The translations under genes were made by a program, and so were the position numbers. The notes below the pieces were generated by a model that had not been told where the DNA came from, did not search any database, and saw nothing but the letters and a program-made list of their open reading frames with translations. Shown in pieces: positions 2,827 to 46,824 of a DNA stretch of 64,000 nucleotides. Position 1 is the first letter of the stretch; each line of letters opens with the position of its first letter. This DNA is from an uncultured Pseudomonadales bacterium. GTDB taxonomy: Bacteria; Patescibacteriota; Microgenomatia; UBA1400; PJMF01. Where the stretch lies: the NCBI GenBank assembly GCA_964620965.1, contig CAZUHV010000002.1:184798-248797 (forward strand), given 5' to 3'.

Positions 2827-2945
2827 ATGATTACCTCTATTCTATGATATAATACAGATCCTGTTTAAAGCAAAACTTTGTAAACAGTTGGCATTTTGAA
2901 AAAGTTCTATTAGTTACGCCTATTTTGGAGAGGAGGTGAGAATCA

Positions 2946-3197
2946 ATGCCTATCATTATTAAAGCAAAAGCTGGTGACAGTTCACATGACGTCATCAAAA
3001 AATTTAAGAAAGCTGTCGCAGCATCTGATATTGTTGCAAAAGCTAGAGATAGAAGATTCTACAAAAAACCTTCTGAAATCAGAACTATAAATAAAACTGA
3101 AAAAAGAAGATTAAGAAAACGTGCAAGAAGCTTAAAGAGAATGAAAAACATCTCCGCAGCAGTTATGCAAAGAATCAACGATCGTTTATCTAAATAA
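2946..3197 (+). CDS. rpsU: 30S ribosomal protein S21
   Basis: MPIIIKAKAGDSSHDVIKKFKKAVAASDIVAKARDRRFYKKPSEIR followed by an Arg/Lys-rich tail. GGAGG RBS 8 nt upstream. Confidence 0.75.
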   Translation: MPIIIKAKAGDSSHDVIKKFKKAVAASDIVAKARDRRFYKKPSEIRTINKTEKRRLRKRARSLKRMKNISAAVMQRINDRLSK

Positions 3198-3221
3198 CGA
3201 TTTTTCTATTAAGAAAAATGT

Positions 3222-33167: not shown

Positions 33168-33515
33168 ATGCAAAGGAATTTTATGACAATTGCTAACCTA
33201 GTAGAACAATACAAAGAAATTTCCGAATTTTTAAACACAAAATGGCCTCTTAAAAATAACGAACAAAAAGTCTTCGCAAGAACTATGAAGATAATGGAGG
33301 AACTTGGAGAACTTTCTGATGAAATCCTCACAAGCATGAACCTTCAAAGAAACACTAAAGTAGCAAAATTTTCTCAACAAAATGTTGAAGATGAATTTGC
33401 AGACGTTCTTGGTTCTCTTATTTTACTTGGAATAGAACTCGATATTGATGTTGCAGAAGTCATGAAACGAAAAATTGCCTTTACAAGAGATCGTTTTGAA
33501 ATGGACAAAGAGTAA
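33168..33515 (+). CDS. MazG-like nucleotide pyrophosphohydrolase (small all-alpha NTP-PPase)
   Basis: MEELGELSDEIL ... EFADVLGSLILLGIELDIDV matches the MazG EExxE/D motif layout. Confidence 0.6.
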   Translation: MQRNFMTIANLVEQYKEISEFLNTKWPLKNNEQKVFARTMKIMEELGELSDEILTSMNLQRNTKVAKFSQQNVEDEFADVLGSLILLGIELDIDVAEVMKRKIAFTRDRFEMDKE

Positions 33516-33531
33516 CAAAATACTGTGTTAC

Positions 33532-35418
33532 TTATAACTCCATAAACTGATAGAGCTCACCATCCACAAACCCACGACTTCTATAGTATTCTCGAGTTCC
33601 AACCGCAGAAATAACTGCTAATTTTTTAAATTGTTTTTTTGTAGCAATTTCTTTTGCCAAACCAATCAGCTTTGTACCTAAACCTAAGTGCTGTGCCTTT
33701 GCATCTTTCTTTTCGCCAACATCCACAACATGACCATAGACGTGAATTTCTCTAATAATAGCAGAGTTTTCGAGCTCAGAAATAAAGTTGCTTACTTTTG
33801 GTAAACTCAAACGTAAAAAGGCCAAAATTTTTGTTCCATCAGTTTGTTCCAATTTTTTCCCAGTTTTTTTATTAAGCACTGTATCAGCATCCACAACATA
33901 CTGTAAAAATAATTCTGTACTTACTGGAGTAGAGTAGATTACTTTTTCAAGTCGAACATCTTTTGGATCAAAGCTGTAATTTTTAATTTCCCTTGCACGA
34001 ATATCTTGTGAATTTTCACCAGCTTTCAATAGTTTTTGTTCTGCAATTTGTCTAAAGTTTGTTAGCTTGTTGCCTTCAACAATATCTGTAGAGGGAATAT
34101 CTCTGATCACTCTAGTTAAACGACAATATTCTGGTGTGTTTAGTAAACAATACGAAAGCACATCCAAAAGTTCTTCATAAGAATATGGTTTCCATAATCC
34201 TTTTTTATAATATTGCATTAATTCAGCACTTCCAATTAAAGAACAAGGATAAATTTTTAATTCATCTGGTCTAAACCCTAAATCACTAAATAACTTAGCA
34301 TAATCTTTTTTATCATTTTCGACTGAAGATCCATACAAGTTTGCCATCCAATGTGCGTGAATTTTGAATCCTGCCTGTCGCAATAACTTCACTGCAGTTC
34401 TCGTAGCTGCAACTCCATGCCCGCGTTTATTTTTTGTGAGAACAGAATCATCTAAACTTTGAAATCCAATTTGTGTTTTTGTACAACCAAGCTTTCGAAT
34501 ACGAATAACTTCTTTTTCTGAAATATTGTCAGGGCGAGTCTCTACAACTAACCCAACATTTCTTACGTCTGCAGTTTCGTTTATTTTTTGTTGTGTAAAT
34601 AACTCCTCCCAAGTTGCAGATTGATATGCGTCAAAACCACCAATTTTTTCTGGAGCAACATATAACTGCGAAACTGTTTGATTATATGTCTTATCAATTT
34701 TTCCACCTTCAATTTTGAAACCATCCATAGTAGCTTTATTTTTTTCAGGGTTATTCGTTAAAACAGCTGCAGATTTTTCTCTTAATTTTTGTTCTAAATC
34801 TTCATAGTGTGCTTCAATGTTTTTCCTATCATCTTTTTTACCAAACTCATTGAGCGCTCTAAAACATTCTTTTATAAACCAAATTTGGTATGCTTCTGGA
34901 TAAAACGACCAAGTCCCTCCAAGTACAATTAACTCCGCTTTATTCACAGAGTGACCGATATTTTGCAAAGCTTGTAAGCGATTATATGTCTGCAAATAGG
35001 GGTCAAACCAATTTCTTTCTGCACGCTGAGCACCAGGTTCATCAGAAAGGTAACTTTTTGGCATTCTAATATCACTTGGACAAAAGATACATTTACCCGG
35101 ACAAGGAAATGGCTTTGTTAATACAGTAATTGGCGCAACACCAGATTGTGTTCTTGTTGGTTTTTTTCGAATTGCTTCTAAAATTTTGTCATTTAACGGA
35201 GCAATTTTATATTTTTTTGCCGTTTTGCTGTTTTCAGTAATACCACGATACCCGATAACAATCTCATCTTTAGAAAACTGACCTCCATCAGCTTTTAGAT
35301 GTTGTTTAGTTAATTGAGCCAATTTTCTTTCAGAAATTGTTTCTAGTTTTTCCAAATCTTTAATTAATGGAATCAATTGCTCAATATGCTTGGTATAATC
35401 AAACTTGTACTTTGTCAT
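33532..35418 (-). CDS. Elp3-like radical SAM + GNAT acetyltransferase (tRNA U34 carboxymethylation-type)
   Basis: Radical-SAM Cys cluster PFPCPGKCIFCPSD. C-terminal GNAT HVYGHVVDVGEKKDAKAQHLGLGTKLIGLAKEIATKKQFKKLAVISAVGTREYYRSRGF aligns with the Elp3 KAT domain. Confidence 0.75.
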   Translation of the reverse strand: MTKYKFDYTKHIEQLIPLIKDLEKLETISERKLAQLTKQHLKADGGQFSKDEIVIGYRGITENSKTAKKYKIAPLNDKILEAIRKKPTRTQSGVAPITVLTKPFPCPGKCIFCPSDIRMPKSYLSDEPGAQRAERNWFDPYLQTYNRLQALQNIGHSVNKAELIVLGGTWSFYPEAYQIWFIKECFRALNEFGKKDDRKNIEAHYEDLEQKLREKSAAVLTNNPEKNKATMDGFKIEGGKIDKTYNQTVSQLYVAPEKIGGFDAYQSATWEELFTQQKINETADVRNVGLVVETRPDNISEKEVIRIRKLGCTKTQIGFQSLDDSVLTKNKRGHGVAATRTAVKLLRQAGFKIHAHWMANLYGSSVENDKKDYAKLFSDLGFRPDELKIYPCSLIGSAELMQYYKKGLWKPYSYEELLDVLSYCLLNTPEYCRLTRVIRDIPSTDIVEGNKLTNFRQIAEQKLLKAGENSQDIRAREIKNYSFDPKDVRLEKVIYSTPVSTELFLQYVVDADTVLNKKTGKKLEQTDGTKILAFLRLSLPKVSNFISELENSAIIREIHVYGHVVDVGEKKDAKAQHLGLGTKLIGLAKEIATKKQFKKLAVISAVGTREYYRSRGFVDGELYQFMEL

Positions 35419-35469
35419 AAATTTGTTCTAGAACACTCTATTATACTCGACAGAGTCAAGAAAACCAAA

Positions 35470-36243
35470 ATGGATATAGAATTAATTAAGCGTTTGAATC
35501 AATTAAATACTGATTTTTATAACGCTACCGCAATTGATTTCGATGACAGTCGACACTACTTTTGGCAAGGATGGGATAAAATTCCACCATTTTTAGATGG
35601 CTTTGATGATATTCGTGTTGCAGACATTGGCTGTGGTAATGGTAGGTTTGGACAGTTTTTATTAGAAAAATGTCCACAAGTCAAACTGAGCTATACAGGC
35701 ATTGATGCTAATAAAAGATTACTTTCATTTGCTGAAGAAAATTTGCAAGGGAAAATTCCTGCACTTCATTTAGATCAAGTTGATATCATTCAAAACTTAT
35801 TAGATAATGAGGATTTTCTTAACAACCAAAAATTTCAACTCATTACTTGTTTTGGTGTATTCCACCATGTCCCAAGTTTTGAGTTGCGATTAAAACTACT
35901 TAAGTATCTGTTGAGCAAACTTTCTGCAAACGGTACACTCATTGTTTCAGTATGGATGTTTATGGAGTATGAACGATTTCGAAAAAAAATTATAAGAACT
36001 GATGAAAAAAATGATTCCCAAAAACTAGAAAAATACTCTCTTAACCTTATCAACCTAGAAAAAAATGACTATATTTTAGATTGGAAACGGGGAACTGAGG
36101 CACTACGATTTTGCCATTATATTGATGAACAAGAACAAAATTTACTCTTAGAAAAATCTGGTGCAAAACTTAAAAAATCTTTTAGAGCTGATGGCAAAGA
36201 AAACGATGTAAACCAGTATCTTATACTGTCACACCAAAGCTAG
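35470..36243 (+). CDS. class I SAM-dependent methyltransferase, Trm9/ALKBH8-like
   Basis: Motif I VADIGCGNGRFG. Motif II-like FQLITCFGVFHHVPSFELRLKLLKYL. Divergent from Elp3 with about 50 nt between the starts. Confidence 0.55.
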   Translation: MDIELIKRLNQLNTDFYNATAIDFDDSRHYFWQGWDKIPPFLDGFDDIRVADIGCGNGRFGQFLLEKCPQVKLSYTGIDANKRLLSFAEENLQGKIPALHLDQVDIIQNLLDNEDFLNNQKFQLITCFGVFHHVPSFELRLKLLKYLLSKLSANGTLIVSVWMFMEYERFRKKIIRTDEKNDSQKLEKYSLNLINLEKNDYILDWKRGTEALRFCHYIDEQEQNLLLEKSGAKLKKSFRADGKENDVNQYLILSHQS

Positions 36244-36278
36244 AATATCTTAGTTTTTAGGTGTATGATACTGCTGTC

Positions 36279-37862
36279 ATGAAAACATTTATTCCACTCC
36301 TTTTTATTATTTTTTCAATTATAGGAATCGCAGATTCTTCTTTTATTACCTATGAAAAATTTGCCGGTATTGTTCCAGATTGTGGAACAGGATTTGATTG
36401 TGGAGCAGTACTAAATAGCAAATGGTCTAGTATCGGCCCAATTCCATTATCTCTTTTAGGGCTTGTATATTACCTCACCGTTTTTGCTCTTGGAGTTTTT
36501 GTTGTGTTGGAGGTCGATTTACAAAAACCTTTACATTCTTTTTTTGACAAACTCAAAATCAAACAAGATTCTATTCTTCGTCAGCTAACAACTGCAGAAC
36601 TTTTACTACTTGTCACTACTTTTGGATTTGGTTTTTCAATTTACTTGGTAAGCCTCATGGCCTTCATTATTGGAGAATGGTGTAAATACTGTTTAATTAG
36701 CGCAGCAGCTTCATCACTATTATTCATTACTAGCTTAGTTTTTTTTGCAAAAGTGAAACAACAATCTCCGTTTGTTTTAAAATTTTTAAGTTTTAAATTT
36801 ATTCACTGGGGATATACAACAATAGTAAAACCATTATTTTTTCTTTTTGATGCAGAGACAGTTCACAACTCATGCACCAACTTTGGAAAACACTTAGGTA
36901 AACTTAAAATCACTCAAGCTCTTACAATTATCGCATTTTCGTTTAGACACTCAGCAAATACAAAAACATTCAATGGGATAACTTTTCCAAACCAAGTTGG
37001 ACTTGCTGCTGGGTTTGATTATAACGGCGAACTTACTAGTATATTACCAAGCTTAGGAATGGGATTTCACACTATTGGGACTGTCACATATCTCCCATAT
37101 GAAGGAAATCCAAAACCACGTTTAGGAAGATTTTTAGAATCAAAGGCTCTTTTGGTTAATAAGGGATTAAAATCATTAGGCGCAGTTGCAATTGCAAAAA
37201 AACTTACTGGTATTCGGTTTCAAATTCCAACAGGCATTTCTATTGCCAGCACAAATAAATACTTCGAAAATGAACAAGAACAAATCTTGGACATTCTTAA
37301 AACATTTACTATTTTCGAAAACTCAAAGGTACAACACGCATACTACGAACTCAATATCAGTTGTCCAAATACATTTGGCGGAGAACCGTTTACCACTCCA
37401 AAAAGATTAGAAAAACTACTTACTGCTCTAGAATCTCTACACGTTTCAAAACCAATTTATGTCAAAATGCCAATTGATCAAAGTAAAAAAGAAACGTTAG
37501 ATCTTTTAAATATTATTGACCAATACAAAATTGCTGGAGTGATCTTTGGTAATCTTACAAAAGATAAAACAAATCCAGATGTTACAGAGACTGAAAGAAA
37601 GCGTTGGAAAACTGTAAAAGGAAACTTAAGCGGCAAACCAACTTGGAAACGTTCAAATGAACTTATTGAACTCACAAAAAGAAACTTTAAAAATAGATTC
37701 ACAATTATTGGTACTGGTGGAATTTTTAATGGAGCAGACGCCATAACAAAAATAAATCTTGGAGCAGATTTAGTTCAAATAATCACAGGAATGATTTTTG
37801 AAGGTCCACAAACCATTGGTGAAATCAATTTAAAACTTGCTGAAAAAAATATAAAGCAGTAA
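36279..37862 (+). CDS. fusion protein: N-terminal VKOR (vitamin K epoxide reductase) membrane domain + C-terminal dihydroorotate dehydrogenase-like (PyrD-family) flavoenzyme domain
   Basis: VKOR features: loop Cys pair PDCGTGFDCG, GIPLSLLGLVYY, TM CXXC GEWCKYCL. DHOD features: FPNQVGLAAGFDYNGE, GFHTIGTVTYLPYEGNPKPRLGRF, NISCPNT (Cys base), IGTGGIFNGADAITKINLGADLVQIITGMIFEGP. Confidence 0.7.
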   Translation: MKTFIPLLFIIFSIIGIADSSFITYEKFAGIVPDCGTGFDCGAVLNSKWSSIGPIPLSLLGLVYYLTVFALGVFVVLEVDLQKPLHSFFDKLKIKQDSILRQLTTAELLLLVTTFGFGFSIYLVSLMAFIIGEWCKYCLISAAASSLLFITSLVFFAKVKQQSPFVLKFLSFKFIHWGYTTIVKPLFFLFDAETVHNSCTNFGKHLGKLKITQALTIIAFSFRHSANTKTFNGITFPNQVGLAAGFDYNGELTSILPSLGMGFHTIGTVTYLPYEGNPKPRLGRFLESKALLVNKGLKSLGAVAIAKKLTGIRFQIPTGISIASTNKYFENEQEQILDILKTFTIFENSKVQHAYYELNISCPNTFGGEPFTTPKRLEKLLTALESLHVSKPIYVKMPIDQSKKETLDLLNIIDQYKIAGVIFGNLTKDKTNPDVTETERKRWKTVKGNLSGKPTWKRSNELIELTKRNFKNRFTIIGTGGIFNGADAITKINLGADLVQIITGMIFEGPQTIGEINLKLAEKNIKQ

Positions 37863-37880
37863 AACTTAAGTTAATTTACT

Positions 37881-38429
37881 TTACCTTATAAACTGTTCTA
37901 TAAAAGATCCAAGAGTATAAGCAGCAATTGCAGCAACTGAACCAACTAACAGCATCTCAACTCCGTTTTTGAACCAGCTACCTTTAATAACATATGTTCT
38001 TAAACTTCCAACAAAAAACATTGCTGTTAATGTAGAAACTACCGACATAATAAATTGATGGTTTTCTGCAATCTCAAAACCAAAAAGCATTAAAACATAC
38101 GGGAGCAGTGGCAATCCACCTGCGACAACAAACGCAAGAAAGGTGACTAAACTTGTTTTCCACAAACAACATGAATCAGAATCTTTGCCTTCGCTTTTTT
38201 CTAAAGTATGAACAGATCTTTCACCAAGATAATCACCAAGTGCCATACTAATTCCATCTGCAACCATATTTGCAATTCCAAGAACAATAATCACTTCTGT
38301 AGCAAAGCCAGCGCCTACAACACCTGCAACAACAGCAAATGTTGTAACAATTCCGTCACTTGCTCCTAATACAGCTGGTTTAATATATTTTTTTGCGACT
38401 TTCATGCCGACCTTCTTTCTTATATTCAT
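37881..38429 (-). CDS. VIT1/CCC1-family Fe/Mn transporter (short form)
   Basis: AVLGASDGIVTTFAVVAGVVGAG signature plus C-terminal TM helices. Confidence 0.75.
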   Translation of the reverse strand: MNIRKKVGMKVAKKYIKPAVLGASDGIVTTFAVVAGVVGAGFATEVIIVLGIANMVADGISMALGDYLGERSVHTLEKSEGKDSDSCCLWKTSLVTFLAFVVAGGLPLLPYVLMLFGFEIAENHQFIMSVVSTLTAMFFVGSLRTYVIKGSWFKNGVEMLLVGSVAAIAAYTLGSFIEQFIR

Positions 38430-38503
38430 TCTATCAAAAAAAGTACCAGCTCACTATACGAGTACATTTTATTTGCTATAATCAAAAAAAGAGAGAGTAG
38501 GAT

Positions 38504-39577
38504 ATGGCAAATCAAACAAAAAAAGGTAAGAGGATATTTTGGATAGATGCTCTTCGAGCACTCTCTATTTTTATGGTTGTTGCATTACATAGTAGTGCGA
38601 AAGTAATTTATTCTTGGGATTTAGTAATAACAGGTGAGCTTTCTGCGTTCTCATGGAACTTTGCAAATCTTATTAACTCCTTTTCAAGAGCTAGTGTCCC
38701 ATTATTCGTTTTATTGAGCGGGGCAGTACTGTTAGAAAAAAAAGAAACTACAGAACAGTTTCTCAGCAAAAGGCTTCCAAGAATTATGTTACCCTGGTTT
38801 TTTTGGGGAACCATTCAATTGTTTTATAACTTTGATTTTTCACTCAAAACTATTTTAAGCGGGAACTTAGCAAATAAAGTTGCTGAAACTTACTTTGGTG
38901 GATTTTGGTTTATGCCAATGATCTTAGGTTTATATTTAGTAACACCTTTGATTAAGCCATTTATTCAAAATGCAAAACCAAAAGAATTTTTCTATTTTTT
39001 TAGTTTATGGTTTGTTTTTGCTTGTTTAATTCCTACGTTAAACACAGTCTTTGGAATTTCAGTTTCTTATCAACTTCCAGTTTTTATACAATATCTTGGA
39101 TACTTTGTTGGAGGCTATTTTTTAACAAACAAAATAAAATTAAAAGAAACTGTAATAAACCAAACAAAATTACTCTATGTTGTTTCAACACTGATTATTG
39201 CACTAGGAACCTTTGCACTTACAAAACTTGATTCTGATTTTAATAGCTCACTATATGAGTATCTTAATCTTCCAGTGTTTATTTCTGCCATCACCGGTTT
39301 TATTACTTTTAAATCACTTTTTGAAAATAAAAAGGTATTAAAAACCATAAAAAAAGTGAAAGATAAAATTCAAAAAATAAGCTCACTTAGCTTTGGAGTT
39401 TTTCTTTCACATGCACTCGTTCTTGATATTTTTACAAAAGGGACAATAGGCCTCACAATTCATGGAATGATAACAACTCCATTTTTTGCGATACCGTTAA
39501 CAACAATTCTTGTTTTTGCAACTTCTTGTTTAATAACTTTGCTTCTGAGTAAATACCTTAAACAATTCGTTTCTTAA
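38504..39577 (+). CDS. acyltransferase family 3 (OatA-like membrane acyltransferase)
   Basis: RIFWIDALRALSIFMVVALHS N-terminal motif and about 10 TM helices. Confidence 0.8.
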   Translation: MANQTKKGKRIFWIDALRALSIFMVVALHSSAKVIYSWDLVITGELSAFSWNFANLINSFSRASVPLFVLLSGAVLLEKKETTEQFLSKRLPRIMLPWFFWGTIQLFYNFDFSLKTILSGNLANKVAETYFGGFWFMPMILGLYLVTPLIKPFIQNAKPKEFFYFFSLWFVFACLIPTLNTVFGISVSYQLPVFIQYLGYFVGGYFLTNKIKLKETVINQTKLLYVVSTLIIALGTFALTKLDSDFNSSLYEYLNLPVFISAITGFITFKSLFENKKVLKTIKKVKDKIQKISSLSFGVFLSHALVLDIFTKGTIGLTIHGMITTPFFAIPLTTILVFATSCLITLLLSKYLKQFVS

Positions 39578-40166
39578 AACTAAAAACGTATAGTAACCAA
39601 ACAAATGTTGTTATAAATATTCCTCTTTGCCAAACTCCAGCAAATTCTGAAAAGTTGAACATCAATAAAGAGAGAACTGTCGCCAAAACTGCGATTGATA
39701 CCGCTAATAATTTGTCAGCATGTTTTTTTGTAAAAAATGCCATTGAAATGGCAAAAAAAGTAAATGAAAATCCTGTAACAGAAGCAAAAAGTGAATGTAA
39801 CTCATCATGGCGTACATTAAAACTTAAACTTGAGTCGATTGGAGCATGACTAAAAATTGCCGTCAAAACCAAAGAACCACCAAAAAGCAATAAAAGAATT
39901 AAAAAATAATAGTGACTTTTAAACTTTTTAAAACCTTCATAGATTGTAGAAAAACCAAGTGCACAAAAAATAAAATTCATAATCCAAGCATTTGGAGTGT
40001 TTTGTGCAGCAAGTTGGCTTGTAGTATTTTTTACAATTGAATATCCAGGTAAACTATAAAATGGCAATAAAAAAATTACCAAAAGCATAACTACATATGA
40101 ATAAAAAAGCGGTGATGATTTTAAGTATTTCAGCATTACTTCATATAATACCAAAAAGCCTAACAA
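39558..40166 (-). CDS. hypothetical polytopic membrane protein
   Basis: Six predicted TM helices, no family recognised. Confidence 0.4.
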   Translation of the reverse strand: MLGFLVLYEVMLKYLKSSPLFYSYVVMLLVIFLLPFYSLPGYSIVKNTTSQLAAQNTPNAWIMNFIFCALGFSTIYEGFKKFKSHYYFLILLLLFGGSLVLTAIFSHAPIDSSLSFNVRHDELHSLFASVTGFSFTFFAISMAFFTKKHADKLLAVSIAVLATVLSLLMFNFSEFAGVWQRGIFITTFVWLLYVFSFKKRIV

Positions 40167-40171
40167 GAAAG

Positions 40172-41449
40172 CTACTCTACAAAAGTTAACGCAACACCTT
40201 GATTATCAGCCCTTCCAGTTCTTCCGATTCTGTGAATATAGCTCTCGTAAGATTCTGGTAAATCATAATTAATAACATGTGTAACATTCTCTATGTCTAA
40301 ACCTCTTGCAATAACATCTGTTGCAATTAAAACTTGAACATAGTCGTCTTTGAACTGTTGTAGTGCACGTTGTCTTTGGTTCTGAGACTTGTTTCCATGT
40401 ATAGCATTGGCTTTAAAACCTTTAGATTGCAAAACTTTAGATAGTTTCTCTGCACCTCTTTTTGTTCTTCCAAAAACTAAAACTTTTTGAAATTCCTCTA
40501 AAACAAGAAGCTCTCGTAGTACATCAATTTTTGGTCTGCCTGCAAGCTTTACAATATCTTGCTTAACATTTAATGAAGTATCTTGAGTTTTTACTGACAC
40601 ATGAACCGGGTTTGTTAAAAACCCATTCATAATTTCTTTGATTTTATCTGTTACTGTAGCAGAGAAAAATAAGGATTGTCTCTTTGTTGGTAGAGCCTCA
40701 ATAATAGCTTTAATATCATGAATAAAGCCCATATCCAACATTCTATCCACCTCGTCTAAAACAATATTGTTGAATTGGTTAAAAGGAAGCTTTCCTTGTT
40801 GATTTAAATCTTTGATTCTTCCAGGAGTACCAATTACAAAGTTTTGACCTCTTCTTAAAGACTCAATTTGTCTATTTAGAGAAGATCCACCAATTAATAA
40901 AGTAGATCGAACAGGCAAACCTTTTGAAAACTCAAATAATTCTGCTCTAATTTGGACAGCTAGCTCTCTTGTAGGTGCAATAATAAGAACCTTCTGAGTT
41001 TGGTCGCCAAGCACCTTGTCTAATAAAGGAATAAGAAAAGACGCAGTCTTTCCAGTCCCAGTATTAGCAATTCCAACAACATCTCTTCCTTCAATAATGT
41101 GAGGAATAATTTTATCCTGAATTGGAGTAGGGGAGGTATATCCTCTTTTTGTGATGTTTACTTTTAAGTTATTTGATATTTTAAAATCATTAAAACTATG
41201 CAAAATCTGATGTGATTCTTGTTGCTCAGTTTTTTTTGTTTCAATTTTTAAACTTAAAATAAAATGTGTTGGATCAAATGTGGCCTGTTTACGACTACCA
41301 CCTCTAGTATTTTGAACCGACATGTTGTAATTTTTGTTTTCTCTTGATTTCTGCTCAAACCTATTCTGATCTGCTCTAGTACTTTGATTACCAAAATGAG
41401 AACCTCTTGATTGGCTCTTTGAACGAGAAAACGAACGTCTCTTACGCAT
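40172..41449 (-). CDS. DEAD-box ATP-dependent RNA helicase (motif II variant DEVD)
   Basis: Q-motif/ motif I TPIQDK...ANTGTGKT, motif II VLDEVDRML, SAT, HRIGRTGRA. The N-terminus is an Arg/Ser-rich tail. Confidence 0.9.
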   Translation of the reverse strand: MRKRRSFSRSKSQSRGSHFGNQSTRADQNRFEQKSRENKNYNMSVQNTRGGSRKQATFDPTHFILSLKIETKKTEQQESHQILHSFNDFKISNNLKVNITKRGYTSPTPIQDKIIPHIIEGRDVVGIANTGTGKTASFLIPLLDKVLGDQTQKVLIIAPTRELAVQIRAELFEFSKGLPVRSTLLIGGSSLNRQIESLRRGQNFVIGTPGRIKDLNQQGKLPFNQFNNIVLDEVDRMLDMGFIHDIKAIIEALPTKRQSLFFSATVTDKIKEIMNGFLTNPVHVSVKTQDTSLNVKQDIVKLAGRPKIDVLRELLVLEEFQKVLVFGRTKRGAEKLSKVLQSKGFKANAIHGNKSQNQRQRALQQFKDDYVQVLIATDVIARGLDIENVTHVINYDLPESYESYIHRIGRTGRADNQGVALTFVE

Positions 41450-41739
41450 ATATAACTTCTTTCTGTATCTTTAATACGTAGTTTAAAAACAAGAAAGTAT
41501 AGATTTATTGGAAAATAATTCTTAAATAGGTTTCAAGCTTAAACCAAGTTAGTTACTTAGTTGTGTAACTAAACAGAATTGTATTGTATCAGAAAACCAT
41601 AAAAAAAGCAAATTATAGGATAAGAATATTGATTCCAGCACTTATAGCAGAATTTTCACCAAACCAATGCTTCCAAAATCCCTCAGCCATCTGGCTTCGA
41701 CCTACGTTACCCTCACAAATAAAAAGCACTTTTTCATTT

Positions 41740-42348
41740 TCAATTATCATACAAAAATTCTCTAATACCTTTTATACTTTTTTCTACCTCTTTAGGATCG
41801 AAGCAAAATACTTGCCATCCACGATCTTTTGCAGGATTCAAGAAATCTTGTTTGTCATCTGTAAACAAAATTCTTTTTGGTTCAACATCTGCAGCAATTT
41901 CCGCAATTTTATATATGTCTTCTTCTGGCTTCACAAAGCCAACATCACAGGAAAATATTTTAGAATCCCAGTCCATAAATGGGAAAAAGTCTTTTTCTAC
42001 TAATTTATCAAAAATTCCAGAATAAATATTTGAAAACAAACCAACTTTAATTTTAGCTTCCTTTATCTCAGAAATTAAATTAAAGCTTTCTTTTATCAAA
42101 ACAAAGTTACTTGTCCAATATTCAGCAAAATCAATATTCTCTTCGTCTAATTCTAATTCCTCTTTATATTTCTTCCACAAATCCAGGGGGGACATATTAC
42201 CTCGACAAACTAAATCATCATATTTTAGAAAAACTTTTTCAAAATCTTCGTACTGCTTACAATGTTTTTTTGCTAGTTTTTGTAAGCCACCACTAAACAG
42301 AAGTAAAACATTACCGATATCGAAGTAAACAAAGTCAATTTTTGACAT
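41740..42348 (-). CDS. HAD-superfamily hydrolase (putative)
   Basis: N-terminal VYFDIGNVLL is motif I with the second Asp replaced by Gly. HAD-like spacing of downstream motifs. TGATATAAT lies 5 nt upstream of the ATG, suggesting a leaderless transcript. Confidence 0.5.
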   Translation of the reverse strand: MSKIDFVYFDIGNVLLLFSGGLQKLAKKHCKQYEDFEKVFLKYDDLVCRGNMSPLDLWKKYKEELELDEENIDFAEYWTSNFVLIKESFNLISEIKEAKIKVGLFSNIYSGIFDKLVEKDFFPFMDWDSKIFSCDVGFVKPEEDIYKIAEIAADVEPKRILFTDDKQDFLNPAKDRGWQVFCFDPKEVEKSIKGIREFLYDN

Positions 42349-42411
42349 AGCATATTATATCAAAGAGAAAATAGGGTAGAAGTTCCAACCGTCCTAGTTG
42401 ACCTCCAGAGG

Positions 42412-42433
42412 TGATGGCGTGGTTGTACTATGT
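42412..42433. repeat. 22-nt repeat TGATGGCGTGGTTGTACTATGT (copy 1), 3' of small ORF
   Basis: Identical 22-mer at 42843..42864. Sits about 10 nt beyond the stop of the minus-strand ORF. Confidence 0.75.
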
Positions 42434-42442
42434 TGGAACTAG

Positions 42443-42667
42443 TTACTCATCAAACATTTTATTTAAATCTTCATCAGATATTGAATCAAGATTCATTGCT
42501 TTTGCGTAAATTCCCATCTTAACAACTAAAGCATCTCTTTTCTGAATAACTCTTTCAGTCCATCCAGCATCTTTTAAATGATCTTCTGTGTTATATATCG
42601 ATTTCCATTCTAAGTAAGCCTTGCGTAGTTCATTGTAAGGAATATTGTTTTGTATTTCTTCTCTCAT
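42443..42667 (-). CDS. small hypothetical protein (74 aa)
   Basis: ATG start. Its 5' side carries the conserved leader repeat with TGGTATAAT. No family recognised. Confidence 0.4.
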   Translation of the reverse strand: MREEIQNNIPYNELRKAYLEWKSIYNTEDHLKDAGWTERVIQKRDALVVKMGIYAKAMNLDSISDEDLNKMFDE

Positions 42668-42747
42668 ATTATCTTTCTATCTATTATCCAAGTCATTCTA
42701 ACATATAAGTTAGGGTAGAATATTGATTTTAATATATCCAAATTATA

Positions 42748-42864
42748 CCAGGTCAGAACTCATGCTTGAGGAGAAATTAGGGTGTACAAATGGGGTATAA
42801 AAATAGGATAGAAATAGATTGATATATAAAGCTATATTTTATTGATGGCGTGGTTGTACTATGT
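42748..42864. repeat. ~95-nt leader repeat (copy A) contiguous with 22-nt repeat copy 2
   Basis: caggtcagaactcatgcttgaggagaaattagggtgtac ... agattgatatataaagctatatttt is about 80% identical to 43282..43374. Its minus-strand 3' end carries the extended -10 TGGTATAAT (42742..42750). Confidence 0.75.
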
Positions 42865-42869
42865 GAGAA

Positions 42870-43265
42870 CTAATTCTCAGTATATGAAAAACCCAAACCT
42901 TCTAAAGCCTTCTTTACCTTATCCCGATCTTGCTCTTTTATAAATAACAAATCCTTTGAATAAGTTGAAACAATCAAAATATTTGAGTCAGATTCATAAA
43001 TCACCTTACTAACATTAAAGAGAGTTCCCTTCATAAAAGGAGTTTCAAGATTTAATGAAACTAATAGCCATTTATTAGGATTTTGTTCTTTAATACTAAA
43101 ACCAACAGGATTTTTTGTAACTACAGTTATTTCTTCACCATCATCTGTTACCAAAAAATGATCTTTATGATTGCTTGGATATTTTGTGGCCTGACAATAG
43201 AAGTAGAAATCAGAGGAAATTGAGAAACTACTTTTTTGAAACATTTGTTGAAGGTCTTTTTGCAT
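42870..43265 (-). CDS. ACT-domain-like small protein (131 aa, putative)
   Basis: C-terminal KGTLFNVSKVIYESDSNILIVSTYSKDLLFIKEQDRDKVKKALEGLGF resembles the ACT_7/CASTOR-type ACT fold. The start lies 10 nt downstream of TGATATAAT, suggesting a leaderless transcript. Confidence 0.4.
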   Translation of the reverse strand: MQKDLQQMFQKSSFSISSDFYFYCQATKYPSNHKDHFLVTDDGEEITVVTKNPVGFSIKEQNPNKWLLVSLNLETPFMKGTLFNVSKVIYESDSNILIVSTYSKDLLFIKEQDRDKVKKALEGLGFSYTEN

Positions 43266-43281
43266 TGTAAAAATATTATAT

Positions 43282-43377
43282 CAGGTCAGAACTCACTCTT
43301 GAGGAGAAATCAGGGCGTACTAACAGGGTTGAGAATATAGAAAAAATTAGATTGATATATAAAGCTATATTTTTGTG
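43282..43377. repeat. ~95-nt leader repeat (copy B) abutting tRNA-Gln 3' end
   Basis: caggtcagaactcactcttgaggagaaatcagggcgtac ... agattgatatataaagctatattttt. Extended -10 TGATATAAT on the minus strand at 43275..43283. Confidence 0.75.
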
Positions 43378-43448
43378 ATGCCCGACTAGGATTCGAACCT
43401 AGGTTAAAGGCTTCAAAGGCCTCTGTCCTGCCGTTAGACGATCGGGCA
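43378..43448 (-). tRNA. tRNA-Gln (anticodon TTG)
   Basis: The reverse complement folds with acceptor TGCCCGA/TCGGGCA, anticodon loop CTTTGAA and T-loop TTCGAAT. Confidence 0.8.
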
Positions 43449-43584
43449 ACTAAAATTGTTGCAAGAACAAACTATACTAAAGAGAGTTGTATTTTACCAA
43501 AAAATAGCAATTTAGAAAAGAAGCATAGAACCTTTTAAAACTAAAGGTGCAAGTTACATAAAACTTTGCCATAATTATGAAGTA

Positions 43585-46500
43585 ATGTCAGCTAAAACTG
43601 AAGTTAAAAAACTAGATAAACAAAAAGACACCTATCAACAAATCGAGGAAACTGTTGCCGATCTAAAAAAAATAAAACTTGAACTTAGAGTATTGAGGGC
43701 AAAAAAAGAAAAAACAACACAAGACATCGATACGATAAAAAGAATAGAACAGGTTATCTCTAGACTTGAAGATCGCGTAGAACAAAGAAGAGATTCCCTC
43801 TCAGTGAGTCAAAAAAACAAAATAATCAAAGAACAATATAGGAATATTTTTGAGACAGACATTCCTGTAAGAAGAATCATTGGCAAAGATATTGTAGCAA
43901 TCTTCATGCCTGAAACGTTTTTGAGAGAGCAAATTAGCCAACTACAAAACTTAGAAGAAAAAATTACAAGTAGCACTGATACTCAAAACCCTCAAAACAG
44001 TGAAGATATAAATGAATACTTTATCCTTCTTAAGAAAGTAAATCAATTTTTAGTTGTTCTTGATAATCTTAAAGTTAATATTCCCGAACCCCACAAAAAA
44101 ACAATTACTAGAATTCAAAGAGGTATGATCAAACTTCCTGTTTATGGAGCAGAGGCCGTTTCAAAACTTTTCATTAGATCAAAAAAAGAAGTTAATAAAC
44201 GGATAAAAAATGTTGAGCATTCACTAGAAAATTATATTACATTTCAAGGCCTAGAAAGCGTCAGAAAAACTTTGCTTTCTGTGCCATCATTCTTTGATGG
44301 AAAAAATAAAGAAATAGAAGAACAAATACGTACTGCGAAAGAAGATGAACTTCCAGGATTATACTCAAAAATTTTAGCTGAACCCTTTGAAATAATTAGA
44401 GAAGCTGGCTTAGATCCTAACCTTCCAGAGAACCACCCAAAAATTATTTACAAACTTTTAACAACAAATAATCGCCATAGCTTTGCTCAAAATGCAGCAT
44501 TCTTATTTGAGATAGATAATATTCAATCTATTATTCCTAAACTAGACCAAGCTATACATAAACACGAAATTATTGCTTCTCTACTTAACATGGAATTTTC
44601 ATACTGGAGAAGATTCTCTCTACTAAACTTAGAAACTATTAAATCAACTTCTCAGAAAATGACTTCTGAAGTTCTCAGGGCAATTACTTTTGATGAAACT
44701 CAAATTGTACCAAGTCTTATTGATCTAGAAAAAATTACTAAGTCTCTTTCTCCTAGACCAGAAACAGATATAAAAGAAGAAATAGATCTACAACATATCC
44801 AAGATGCTGAGCTAAAAAAACTAATACAAGAAGATTTACAACTATTTGAGAAATTCCCAACAAATGATAGAGAAGTGCTTATTTTTGTGCAACAGTACAA
44901 AGAAATAGTTAGTAGATATAAAAACCTCAATCCAGAAAAAGTAAAAAAACTTATTCTAGAATACAAGAAAAAAATTGATGCAAGAATGCAGATATTATTA
45001 CTTAACCAAATTGTTGAATCTGCAATTGGTGAGACGATGATCTACGACTTTCATGAATGGCAAGTAGCAGACAATAATTTAGGAAGAATACTTAACAATA
45101 ACAATATTTGTTCAGTTTTTACAAGTTATAATAGGGGACTTATTAACTCCCTCAGCAAAGAAAAAGAAAACGCTACTGTTCCTAGAAGTGGCTTTGCAGT
45201 TCTAAAAAAATCAGAAAACCCAGAAAGAAAATTTGACGTTTCATTAAGAGTCTATAATAATACTTCCCGATATAATGCCTTTCATTCAACAATGCTTGAA
45301 TGTTGGATCGATTCTGAAGGGGACCAAAAAAGAACAAAACAACTATGGGAAAAAAGAATACAAAAAATCGAAAAAACCCTTCCAAGTTTTTATCCCGAAG
45401 AACTTCTTTTACATATAATAACAGTTTCAAGAAAAACCCAATCTAAGCTAGATATAGACTTTTTTGACGGTATCACAAAAACTTTAATCGAAAAATACTC
45501 TGCCTCACAAGGAGGTGAGATAAATACTAACCACTTAAGTGATCTTGTGAGCTATGTAACAAGTCATATGGATCTTTCTCAAAAATCAATACTAGATTGG
45601 TGGAAAAATAGTTACTGTACACAATACCAAGCTCCAAGTTTTGAGGAAGCACTCTCTAGAGTTCATACACTTCCTTGTATTCTGCTTCCATCAGAAATAT
45701 CAAGCTCTCAAAATGTTAATGAACTTCAACAAGAACTTACACAAATAACTAATGAACTAAGATCTCAATTTGTTACAGCATCAATGCTCATAACTTATGG
45801 GGTTAACCAAAACGGAGACTTTGCACTATCTTCAAGTTGTGACCACTCGAATTGGGATGGAAAACAAAGTGGAGATATGGTTGAAAAAGTTATTACTAAA
45901 GTTATAGACTCAACAAAACAGACTCAACTTAATCAATCAGAAATTCTTCAAGATACAACTACCCACGTTGACACTACTGTAATTACTTCAAGTGAAAAAG
46001 AGAAAGCTGTTTTAGAACAATCTGGGAATTACCAAATACAATCGTATGTAGAAGCAGAAGGGTTTGTGAGGATCTGTGATGATATTGGTCAAATGGTTTC
46101 TAGACTAGTTTCAGAAGGTAAAATAAACCCAGATACAAAAATTAAAAATCCAGCTGTTATCATGCAATTAATGCTTGTAAATGTGTATAGAGACATTCTT
46201 TCAAAAATGAAGGATGAAGATGGAACAGAACACTTTACTCAAACCCAAAATATAGGAATGTTACTAGGAAACCCTGATATAACAAAAGACCTAGACTTAG
46301 CCCCAATTCAAGGTGGTTTTGATTTACAACTCTTTAATAATCTTGATCTTAAACAAAAAGAAGAATATCTTGTTTCACTTGCTCTTTTATTTGATATTTC
46401 ATTAAAACATACAAATATGGAGCTTATCAAAAAAGTTGCAGAATCTATTCCATTTAAAGGAATTCAAAACTTTCTTAATGATCTTTCAAGAAGGAAAATA

Positions 46501-46824
46501 CTACTTGGTGGATTAAAGGATTTTGCTGGAGAATTTATGATTTCAAACTTCGGCCTTCCAAGAGTCAAAGGTGGAAAAATAAAATTAGAAAAAAAGCATG
46601 GCTTCCAAATTATTAGAAACTCTGGACCTGCCCAAACTGACTTCCAAAAAGGTTCTATGACTATAGTAGGAGCCTTAGAAATGGCTAATACATTTTATTT
46701 ATCAATTTGTTATAAAAATAAGAGAAATGCTGCGGCAATACATATTGCAAAAGAATTCAAAAAGTACATTGAATCACTAGATGTGAACTATTACATGGAC
46801 TGGAAACAAAAAAACACCAACTAA
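43585..46824 (+). CDS. large orphan protein (1079 aa) with N-terminal coiled coil, function unknown
   Basis: Uninterrupted 3.2 kb ORF with its own intrinsic terminator. No signal peptide, P-loop or other motif recognised. Confidence 0.6.
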   Translation: MSAKTEVKKLDKQKDTYQQIEETVADLKKIKLELRVLRAKKEKTTQDIDTIKRIEQVISRLEDRVEQRRDSLSVSQKNKIIKEQYRNIFETDIPVRRIIGKDIVAIFMPETFLREQISQLQNLEEKITSSTDTQNPQNSEDINEYFILLKKVNQFLVVLDNLKVNIPEPHKKTITRIQRGMIKLPVYGAEAVSKLFIRSKKEVNKRIKNVEHSLENYITFQGLESVRKTLLSVPSFFDGKNKEIEEQIRTAKEDELPGLYSKILAEPFEIIREAGLDPNLPENHPKIIYKLLTTNNRHSFAQNAAFLFEIDNIQSIIPKLDQAIHKHEIIASLLNMEFSYWRRFSLLNLETIKSTSQKMTSEVLRAITFDETQIVPSLIDLEKITKSLSPRPETDIKEEIDLQHIQDAELKKLIQEDLQLFEKFPTNDREVLIFVQQYKEIVSRYKNLNPEKVKKLILEYKKKIDARMQILLLNQIVESAIGETMIYDFHEWQVADNNLGRILNNNNICSVFTSYNRGLINSLSKEKENATVPRSGFAVLKKSENPERKFDVSLRVYNNTSRYNAFHSTMLECWIDSEGDQKRTKQLWEKRIQKIEKTLPSFYPEELLLHIITVSRKTQSKLDIDFFDGITKTLIEKYSASQGGEINTNHLSDLVSYVTSHMDLSQKSILDWWKNSYCTQYQAPSFEEALSRVHTLPCILLPSEISSSQNVNELQQELTQITNELRSQFVTASMLITYGVNQNGDFALSSSCDHSNWDGKQSGDMVEKVITKVIDSTKQTQLNQSEILQDTTTHVDTTVITSSEKEKAVLEQSGNYQIQSYVEAEGFVRICDDIGQMVSRLVSEGKINPDTKIKNPAVIMQLMLVNVYRDILSKMKDEDGTEHFTQTQNIGMLLGNPDITKDLDLAPIQGGFDLQLFNNLDLKQKEEYLVSLALLFDISLKHTNMELIKKVAESIPFKGIQNFLNDLSRRKILLGGLKDFAGEFMISNFGLPRVKGGKIKLEKKHGFQIIRNSGPAQTDFQKGSMTIVGALEMANTFYLSICYKNKRNAAAIHIAKEFKKYIESLDVNYYMDWKQKNTN

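Follow-up and report, generated by a model that had tools for sequence, protein, structure and literature searches.

Sedentary chromosomal integrons carry near-identical attC repeats, such as the VCRs (Vibrio cholerae repeats) of Vibrio; an attC site is an imperfect palindrome (R''-L''...L'-R') able to fold in single-stranded DNA. Tandem accretion of tRNA-targeted elements is known from the cis-mobilizable elements (CIMEs) and integrative and conjugative elements (ICEs) of streptococci. The Xer modules of Acinetobacter plasmids lie between pdif sites, 28-bp dyad-symmetric XerC/XerD sites composed of two 11-nt arms and a 6-nt centre and found in alternating orientation, and the Correia elements of Neisseria, which possess inverted termini, are scattered over the whole genome. 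In Patescibacteria, which are host-dependent and whose genomes are tiny and streamlined, the gain and exchange of accessory genes are poorly understood. In the tycheposons of Prochlorococcus, successive integration at a tRNA gene pushes older elements away and leaves partial tRNAs between them (10.1101/2020.12.28.424599). Here we analyze a locus at the 3' end of a tRNA-Gln gene in a stretch of 64,000 nucleotides (the window) from the Patescibacteriota assembly GCA_964620965.1 (contig CAZUHV010000002.1, positions 184,798 to 248,797). On its minus strand the tRNA-Gln gene is followed by two small genes, each preceded by a repeated promoter module and followed by a short repeated tag, and then by a gene for a HAD-family hydrolase. 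We interpret this segment, with a probability of about one half, as the part nearest the tRNA of a modular array of gene cassettes that characterizes a Patescibacteria subclade. Mini-cassettes without an integrase would have been inserted site-specifically and in tandem at the 3' end of tRNA-Gln, and each would have its own promoter for a leaderless mRNA.

As in integrons, the arrays of this kind are long and co-oriented, consist mostly of single-gene cassettes that each end in one repeated site, and start at a fixed anchor. They also carry GNATs, aminoglycoside-modifying enzymes, genes of unassigned function and reversed toxin-antitoxin cassettes, and they differ among close relatives. Unlike in integrons, the repeated site is a non-palindromic tag of 29-33 nt that does not form an attC hairpin, a tRNA gene provides the anchor with its 3' end in place of an attI beside intI (no IntI was seen in the checked open reading frames, ORFs, of the window or in the array excerpts), the joint lies at CATCA and not at G|TT, and nearly every cassette has its own promoter, with a leaderless start, whereas integron cassettes are mostly promoterless and rely on Pc. 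With tycheposons and CIMEs the arrays share an intact tRNA anchor and a streamlined genome and, in related loci, partial tRNA copies between units; on our interpretation older units would also be displaced outward, and integrase-less derivatives could be mobilised in trans. They differ from these elements in that the units span 0.4-2 kb without mobility genes or their remnants among the array genes scanned, most separators are a dedicated tag with no recognisable tRNA fragment, and each unit has a conserved promoter module. The likeness to pdif modules lies in small gene modules between short recombination sites, with no recombinase of their own and presumably moved by a host enzyme, but the sites found here lack symmetry, share one orientation, lie on the chromosome and are linked to a tRNA gene. 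Correia elements and the minimal mobile elements of Neisseria offer repeated intergenic DNA that supplies promoters, and the exchange of genes lying between conserved flanks through homologous recombination that follows transformation. The units described here, in contrast to Correia elements, have no inverted termini and occur only in a single polar array at tRNA-Gln. The arrangement is real and non-trivial, and it is related to cassette-array and tRNA-accretion systems while belonging to neither. It is apparently undescribed: literature searches on integrons and cassettes in Patescibacteria yielded no such array, and nothing on integrase, tRNA or cassette was found in a survey of gene transfer in Patescibacteria (PMC12455944).

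Anatomy of the array and its junctions

The order on the minus strand is tRNA-Gln(UUG), a 106-nt promoter repeat, an ACT-domain gene (ORF131), a 33-nt tag, a second promoter repeat, ORF74, a second tag and the HAD gene. An earlier note on this DNA had proposed the same order, and all of the elements are where it placed them; the identical arrangement is present in two independent Logan assemblies (SRR10580904 and SRR10580905). The tRNA-Gln gene occupies 43377-43448 on the minus strand (ARAGORN; Rfam tRNA, 61.6 bits). Its 3' boundary reads ...GGGCA-T-CA, with CATCA at 43376-43380, and the first promoter repeat (repeat B) starts directly after it; this CATCA is the anchor of the array, its 'B-O' side. 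The two promoter repeats, at 43275-43380 and 42742-42847, align without gaps over 106 nt with 81% identity (83% with one gap) and both terminate in TGNTATAAT. They had been described as 95-nt elements of about 80% identity that end in an extended -10. The 22-mer CATAGTACAACCACGCCATCA said to follow both ORFs is exact over 21-22 nt (42412-42432 and 42843-42863) and forms part of a longer tag of 33 nt with 91% identity (42412-42444 and 42843-42875); no such repeat is expected by chance (100 shuffles). The central tag and repeat A are contiguous, as claimed, and overlap in CATCA, so that one copy forms a unit of 134 nt (42742-42875) rather than about 117 nt. The distance between TATAAT and ATG is 9 nt for ORF131, which makes this gene effectively leaderless, and 74 nt for ORF74, in agreement with the leaderless transcript and the leader of about 75 nt that had been predicted. 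ORF131, with its ACT_7 domain, and ORF74 are unrelated in sequence, also as predicted. Beyond the earlier note, the region upstream of the HAD gene (42349-42411) was found to belong to a third repeat family. The promoter repeats and the tags are the sole notable non-tRNA repeat families in the 64-kb window.

Tag 1 (42843-42875, minus strand) is a 33-mer with the 29-nt core AGTTCTCACATAGTACAACCACGCCATCA and has at its end the CATCA that also forms the tRNA boundary, and tag 2 (42412-42444, minus strand) has the 29-nt core AGTTCCAACATAGTACAACCACGCCATCA. Both end in ...GCCA-T-CA, the first being followed by repeat A and the second by the promoter region of the HAD gene. Three joints can thus be recognized in the window, all of which share CATCA: tRNA to promoter repeat, tag to promoter repeat, and tag to another sequence, the HAD promoter. 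At tag 2, homology with a cassette of a related contig, L003, ends exactly past CATCA.

The search for further copies of these elements, which the earlier note had recommended, was productive. Genome and metagenome collections were scanned with 23 nt of the invariant part of the promoter repeat, which retrieved ten more loci, and a profile of the unit then revealed arrays. About nine related assemblies of Patescibacteria have the same modules in co-oriented arrays of up to eight or more units, with different genes between them and with tRNA-Gln, at its 3' end, as the starting point. The sequences all stem from metagenomes, the related loci (L numbers below) are excerpts of 2-12 kb, and the independent arrays number about nine. 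Counted with the unit profile, same-strand units amount to eight in 8 kb in L009, four in L012 (the same array as L018), three each in L017, L014 and L015, and two in L013. The 3.7-kb L003 contig has four units that separate an ORF74 orthologue, a Ser_hydrolase and GNAT pair, an 88-aa membrane protein and a further gene. Wherever it is visible, the start of the array abuts tRNA-Gln(UUG), as in the window, L010, L012/L018, L014, L017 and L009 (in the latter the tRNA is cut by the end of the locus), and the 3' end of an intact tRNA gene is also abutted by the array in L015 (CUG) and L027. A more distant lineage, L027-L029, has arrays of tags with the third promoter family only.

With a relaxed pattern, 38 tags were found in 11 non-redundant sources, where 0.1 would be expected by chance, and their 29-nt core has the consensus AGTTCCNACATAGTNCAAC-NNN-GCCATCA. 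All 38 lie on one strand per source, which is that of the tRNA where a tRNA is present. This polarity is kept around reversed genes, namely Gp49/HTH_3 (HigBA-like) pairs in L010 and L016 and other genes in L009, L014 and L015; therefore, the tag is a property of the array and not a 3' untranslated region or end of an mRNA. The sequences to the left of the joint fall into three classes: the intact tRNA-Gln end, a tag, or exact 12-19-nt copies of the tRNA-Gln 3' end, in front of which lies a conserved segment of 85-150 nt. Those to the right are of at least four kinds, the promoter modules R1 and R3, a terminator module (R2) that ends in a partial-tRNA arm, and unique sequence. Left arms and right flanks combine freely and are always joined right after CATC(A/C). 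The exact tRNA-Gln copies occur in L012/L018, L010, L014, L015, L016, L004 and L022, and the separators of the window are tags that share only CATCA with the tRNA.

One metagenome-assembled genome (MAG), JACKFX01, has arrays at both of its tRNA-Gln genes, L014 (UUG) on contig 1 and L015 (CUG) on contig 2. In L015 the tRNA-Gln(CUG) end and the tags read GATCA instead of CATCA, and the partial-tRNA arms and tag ends of both arrays match the local tRNA, in CATCA versus GATCA and in GAATCCAAGTCGGGCATC versus GAATCCTAGTTCGGGATC. Five pairs of orthologous cassettes were aligned with their flanks. Homology stops right past CATCA in three of the five and continues into the following promoter box or a diverged unit in the other two. 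The subtype of the downstream tag accompanies the gene across the aligned pairs; for instance, both APH cassettes have an unusual A(A/T)TTCC tag start.

The promoter repeat, R1, is about 100 nt long and contains a 25-nt box, AAATATAGCTTTATATATCAATCTA, that is invariant across the window and L003 copies; the extended -10 lies 8-11 nt before the ATG. The tRNA-proximal copy in the window, R1-B (43275-43375, minus strand; repeat-family detection and pattern match), has the box at 43348-43372, conserved TACCC..TAGTAC and ATTTCTCCTCAAG segments and the extended -10 TGATATAAT at 43275-43283, 9 nt from the ORF131 start codon. In the tag-linked copy, R1-A (42742-42842, minus strand), the box lies at 42815-42839 and the extended -10 TGGTATAAT at 42742-42750. 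R1-B is 85-88% identical to the tRNA-proximal modules of other genomes (88% to L012, 85% to L010) and only 81% to R1-A of the same window, and the identity matrix sets the tRNA-proximal copies from different genomes apart as a subtype of their own. R1-A is nearest to units 3 and 4 of L003 (87-88%) and not to the unit that precedes the ORF74 orthologue there (83%). The idea that R1 travels with the gene downstream was rejected, because in the identity matrix the R1 modules that precede orthologues are no more alike than those that precede unrelated genes. From the breakpoints and the pattern of R1 similarity, the modules are thus mosaics of tag, box, promoter part and gene.

R3 is a shorter alternative to R1 of the general form CCTCNNGA...CTAGGACGGTTRGAAC...TGNTATAAT. 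The copy upstream of the HAD gene (42349-42411, minus strand) reads CCTCTGGAGGTCAACTAGGACGGTTGGAAC...TTGATATAAT, has its TATAAT 5 nt from the ATG and contains GTTGGAACT, an inverted copy of AGTTCCAAC in the tag. Related copies were found in L018, in L015 (one of them directly after tRNA-Gln(CUG)), in L027 (two, plus a tRNA-proximal one) and in L020. The motif AGTTCCNAC is present in the promoter spacer of both families, direct in R1 and inverted in R3. Nearly all forward cassettes have TGNTATAAT 5-11 nt upstream of the ATG, and most follow the pattern TATAAT-N8-11-ATG, a spacing that implies leaderless mRNAs. A scan for sigma-70 -35/-10 promoters gave no more sites than in shuffled sequence; only the extended -10 was informative.

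The third module, R2, consists of a bidirectional rho-independent terminator with compensatory changes in its stem, a relatively GC-rich segment of 85-150 nt (two subfamilies) and a 12-19-nt copy of the tRNA-Gln 3' end. Copies are located in L012 (5046-5174 and 6997-7126), L018 (1838-2030), L010 (2244-2372 and 3135-3260), L004 (4204-4345), L022 (3756-3940) and, on the minus strand, L014 (about 1620-1790). They occur within arrays as well as directly after an intact tRNA-Gln in relatives that have no tag/R1 system, and no Rfam match was obtained. R2 could represent an attachment (att) arm, or else encode a small RNA, so far undescribed, whose 3' end is tRNA-like. In L025 (768-808) and L012 (about 3040-3105), shortened 'mini-units' of some 45-60 nt join the 5' half of a tag, A(A/G)TTCCAACA(T/C)AGT, to TTTCTYYT..(CAAG) and a -10, and are apparent deletion derivatives of the full unit.

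Proposed site-specific insertion and competing explanations

We infer that the joints are made by a dedicated recombinase at CATCA through circular intermediates. A cassette would consist of a portable promoter module (R1 or R3), one or a few genes and a terminal tag of 29-33 nt, and would exist as a small integrase-less circle with a tag-CATCA-promoter site (P-O-P'). At CATCA, such circles would recombine either with the tRNA-Gln 3' end (B-O-B') or with a tag already in place, and repeated insertion and exchange at this point would build and reshuffle the array. The recombinase would act in trans and be encoded elsewhere, not nearby. The junctions predicted in this way would be the ones seen in the window, B-O-P' between tRNA and R1, P-O-P' between tag and R1, and P-O-B' between tag and R3-HAD, as would be expected if two insertions had occurred in tandem at a single attachment point. 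Since a cassette either brings a promoter of its own or receives one, each captured gene would be expressed individually. Site-specific insertion is preferred because it covers the tRNA anchor, the polarity, the single nucleotide at which arms and flanks combine freely, the occurrence of partial tRNA copies where tags would otherwise be and the different genes found in different arrays. The view of the earlier note, that the locus resembles a gene-cassette array or iterative insertion beside a tRNA, is accordingly borne out for the array and its cassette organisation, while for insertion the mechanism is a proposal, and a recombinase (in the checked ORFs) and an attC-like fold were not found.

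Several results weigh against this interpretation. No Phage_integrase, resolvase or DDE domain was detected in the checked ORFs of the window (Pfam, almost all of those of at least 110 aa, with precomputed Pfam assignments for neighbours), and the array genes sampled with Pfam from the excerpts contained no recombinase except insertions of the insertion sequences IS256 and IS3 in two arrays. The earlier note had suggested a search for a tyrosine or serine integrase nearby outside the window; in the checked window ORFs and inside the arrays none was found apart from these IS insertions. IMG/VR was scanned for the box, the tag and the partial-tRNA arm and returned nothing, or two chance matches without the unit, and BLAST of the unit against phage and plasmid collections gave no match. 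The 134-145-nt tag+R1 unit folds no better than shuffled sequence on either strand (z from -0.33 to +1.13), the consensus fold of 15 units has -0.4 kcal/mol compared with -0.6 +/- 1.1 for column shuffles, and the 29-nt tag core, read directly, has no dyad symmetry and no inverted repeat was reported within it. With neither dyad in the tag nor fold in the unit, the site is unlike a classical tyrosine-recombinase core or attC. The possibility that the tag is a degenerate 3' half of tRNA-Gln was discarded, as their similarity is not significant against shuffles (p 0.05-0.6). The covariation of CATCA and GATCA concerns one position in one genome, and where two sequences share a repeat, an end of homology at its edge is in part a consequence of the construction. 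Seven truncated units stop just past the box, which constitutes a second recurrent breakpoint; together with the failure of R1 to track genes, this indicates that the modules also recombine elsewhere, as homologous recombination would allow. Finally, ACT, HAD and the DUF5674 pair are found near tRNA-Gln in relatives without the repeats. The downstream region is therefore a clade-wide variable neighbourhood on which the tag/promoter system is a lineage-specific overlay.

Many of these observations are shared with the main rival explanation, in which the repeats are regulatory punctuation without dedicated mobility: R1 and R3 would be a shared promoter/operator and the tag a gene-end or operator motif of co-regulated accessory genes, with copies kept alike by selection and gene conversion and genes shuffled by homologous recombination, for example after natural transformation, as in the minimal mobile elements of Neisseria. 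We consider this explanation possible, although on the doubtful side. It has no need of the recombinase that was missing from the checked window ORFs; it accommodates the gene pool that repeat-free relatives hold downstream of tRNA-Gln (ACT, HAD, S51, LMWPc and the DUF5674 pair), R1 modules whose similarity follows the left neighbour, tRNA or tag, rather than the downstream gene, and the several breakpoints and the mini-units of L012 and L025; and the inversion of AGTTCCNAC between R1 and R3, as might be seen in an operator half-site, and the fixed short spacing between -10 and ATG suit it as well, as does the expectation, already noted, for homology at the edge of shared repeats. What it accounts for less readily is that tags keep the orientation of the array even beside reversed genes, that partial tRNA-Gln copies can take the position of a tag, and that one single-nucleotide joint is used with unrelated right flanks. 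The latter requires non-homologous joining at a fixed point, and 29 nt is at the lower limit for RecA-dependent exchange.

It is unlikely that the arrays are instead decayed integrase-bearing islands or prophages, similar to tycheposons, that integrated successively into tRNA-Gln and left tags as old attR scars and cassettes as immobile remains. Exact 12-19-nt partial copies of tRNA-Gln do lie inside arrays and also, in L004 and L022, immediately behind the tRNA, and displacement of older elements with partial tRNAs in between is the known outcome of successive integration in Prochlorococcus (10.1101/2020.12.28.424599), but no integrase fragments or remnants of mobility genes were found in about 70 kb of arrays, the units are 0.4-2 kb long with mostly single genes, and tags from different genomes are far more alike mutually than to the tRNA. 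This last feature indicates a maintained sequence family and not independent scars. Still less credit is given to punctuation at the level of RNA, where transcripts reading through from upstream promoters would be processed or ended at tags and partial tRNA ends that mimic the tRNA 3' boundary. The tag does follow immediately past stop codons, with a TAG within its 5' flank, has ...CCA-UCA in common with the tRNA end, can be replaced by partial tRNA 3' ends and vice versa, and is co-oriented with the tRNA; nevertheless, it has no acceptor-like helix or conserved structure, at reversed genes it would be in antisense RNA, and the differing gene content between genomes would be left unexplained.

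A canonical integron, as a cluster of attC sites lacking an integrase (CALIN), or a mobile promoter element resembling a miniature inverted-repeat transposable element (MITE) and inserted between pre-existing genes is the least probable of all, because the integron-like topology and gene content, the tag+R3 element of about 60 nt bounded by ..TTCYAAC and GTTRGAA.., reminiscent of R''/R' boxes, and the multicopy intergenic 134-nt unit with a promoter are set against the absence of an attC-like fold and of IntI (in the checked window ORFs), a promoter in every cassette and a joint at CATCA instead of G|TT in the first case, and against the absence of terminal inverted repeats and target duplications, copies confined to one locus and orientation and a left arm replaceable by a tRNA end in the second. 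The tag+R3 variant is alone in having the TTCYAAC ... GTTRGAA pair, which matches the integron R''/R' core boxes (RYYYAAC ... GTTRRRY) at six of seven positions each. Its 9-bp inverted repeat is paired in 89% of cells, in five copies only and with two double changes, and is not significant (116 of 500 shuffles); the hairpin is weak and the fold is not conserved (z from -0.1 to -0.85). Traits of MITEs or Correia elements were also missing from the units, which showed no inverted termini and no target duplications and occur twice in the 64 kb, both times at this locus, with all copies co-oriented. A search with Rfam 15 of the window region and eight related loci returned tRNAs only (E <= 0.1-1).

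Genes of the array and neighbouring features

The first cassette gene, ORF131 (42870-43265, minus strand), encodes a protein with an ACT_7 domain (Pfam, E 5e-7), and its TAG stop codon falls inside the 5' flank of tag 1 (AAT TAG TTC). It belongs to a widespread ACT family, with 209 homologues mostly from Patescibacteria, and its substitutions by codon position are biased to the third (26/20/62 against L004 and 25/21/56 against L008). Relatives with 70-79% identity lie shortly downstream of tRNA-Gln without tags or R1, so ORF131 is not obviously foreign. In L022 the relative comes after the DUF5674 and 91-aa genes, a pair that L009 and L016 carry as a tagged cassette.

The second gene, ORF74 (42443-42667, minus strand), is separated from R1-A by a specific leader of 74 nt (42668-42741, minus strand), about 81% conserved in L003 and located there, again, between R1 and the ORF74 orthologue. 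The product is a small helical protein (AlphaFold2, predicted local distance difference test score 77), the model of which had no fold match in PDB, and Pfam gave only a weak match to DUF5415 below threshold (E 0.005, 17.3 bits against a cutoff of 25). A single other homologue cluster was found among 5.8 billion proteins (P0122, 85%), and it is located in the L003 array. The differences by codon position, 6/6/9, suggest that ORF74 may be under weak constraint. The earlier note had asked whether the two ORFs are conserved syntenic genes in genomes without the repeats; ORF131 does lie by tRNA-Gln in repeat-free relatives, and the only other homologue cluster of ORF74 is the one in the L003 array. 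Searches of PHROGs with ORF74, the ACT protein, a 1079-aa ORF described below and two unassigned proteins yielded no match.

The HAD-family hydrolase gene (41740-42348, minus strand; Pfam Hydrolase) either is resident at the locus, beyond the two cassettes, or represents a third cassette that is older than these. The 3' flank of tRNA-Gln differs between relatives, a comparison that the earlier note had proposed. In L027-L029, tRNA-Gln is directly followed by R3 and a HAD orthologue (57% identical), a nearly empty site that speaks for insertion; relative to it the window has two extra cassettes between tRNA and R3-HAD. In L027 this orthologue, the first gene after the tRNA, carries a tag of its own. 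The end of the HAD gene overlaps a truncated LMWPc phosphatase gene of 45 aa (41613-41750, minus strand; Pfam LMWPc), which is a decayed former array member; it shares 88% identity with the N-terminal part of an LMWPc gene of 142 aa in the L014 array.

By Pfam, the cassettes of the related arrays include GNATs, an APH(6) kinase, RmlD-type epimerases, NUDIX, HD, LOG, cupin, tRNA_bind, Ser_hydrolase, Peptidase_S51 and ACT proteins, besides reversed HigBA-like toxin-antitoxin pairs, small membrane proteins and genes of unassigned function, and eight gene families recur across different arrays or positions. In L018 (about 2030-3200, equivalent to L012 7710-8000) a gene for a transposase of the IS256/Mutator family is inserted right beside the CATCA of a tag, with hairpin-like terminal inverted repeats of 23 bp (GAGACCGTTCAAAAACGGTCACC). 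Its 382-aa product, at the end of the array, was considered as the array recombinase and rejected, as it represents an insertion of an IS. Fragments of IS3 are present in the L016 array.

Upstream of the array, an ORF of 1079 aa (43585-46824, plus strand), for which neither Pfam nor PHROGs gave a significant match, separates tRNA-Gly(GCC) from tRNA-Gln. In L012 only 91 nt lie between the two tRNA genes, so the gene appears to have been inserted in the window or lost in L012. A block with radical-SAM and methyltransferase genes (and VKOR/VIT1) is located immediately upstream of tRNA-Gln in relatives (L004, L008, L014, L022 and L027 were compared), while in the window (about 33500-41450) it is inverted and lies downstream of the array; this arrangement suggests that an inversion took place, one end of which was at the tRNA-Gln locus. 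Just upstream of tRNA-Gln, L027 (5643-5857) and L029 (about 560-760) have about three tandem copies of a repeat of about 68 nt (..GCAAAAAGACAGGGTCCGAAATGCACGCAAGGTATCTTTCGTACCAGC..), near a stretch similar to the R2 segment (GACCGAGCTTTGCGAGGGAATGTCCGAAG). In L007 (2680-2911), from a more distant relative, a 76-nt repeat unrelated to the unit is present twice in tandem beside tRNA-Val, 126 nt apart and 86% identical. The MAGs of L009, L013, L014 and L015 are labelled 'Pseudomonadales bacterium'; isolate names (e.g. HK-STAS-PATE-16), gene content and protein matches indicate Patescibacteria, and the labels on these array-bearing MAGs are probably wrong.

Implications for gene exchange in Patescibacteria

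We tentatively propose, as a possibility short of even odds, that these loci represent an undescribed integron-like gene-capture platform of the Candidate Phyla Radiation (CPR), in which the tRNA-Gln 3' end would be the docking site, the asymmetric 29-nt tag the site of the cassettes, and the recombinase encoded in trans, and in which portable promoters for leaderless mRNAs would make every captured gene self-expressed. This recombinase would possibly be of a new type, because the site has neither dyad symmetry nor a hairpin. Excision and circle junctions are predicted that would be findable in reads, with the recombinase to be found, and the 29-nt tag and the 25-nt invariant box are searchable handles in metagenomes. 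The promoter module, with its extended -10 and leaderless start, is a ready-made reporter of CPR promoter architecture. If this interpretation is true, these bacteria would have, in the polar array of self-expressed single-gene cassettes anchored at a tRNA gene, a site dedicated to accessory-gene turnover, with an organisation like that of integrons and built on different sites.

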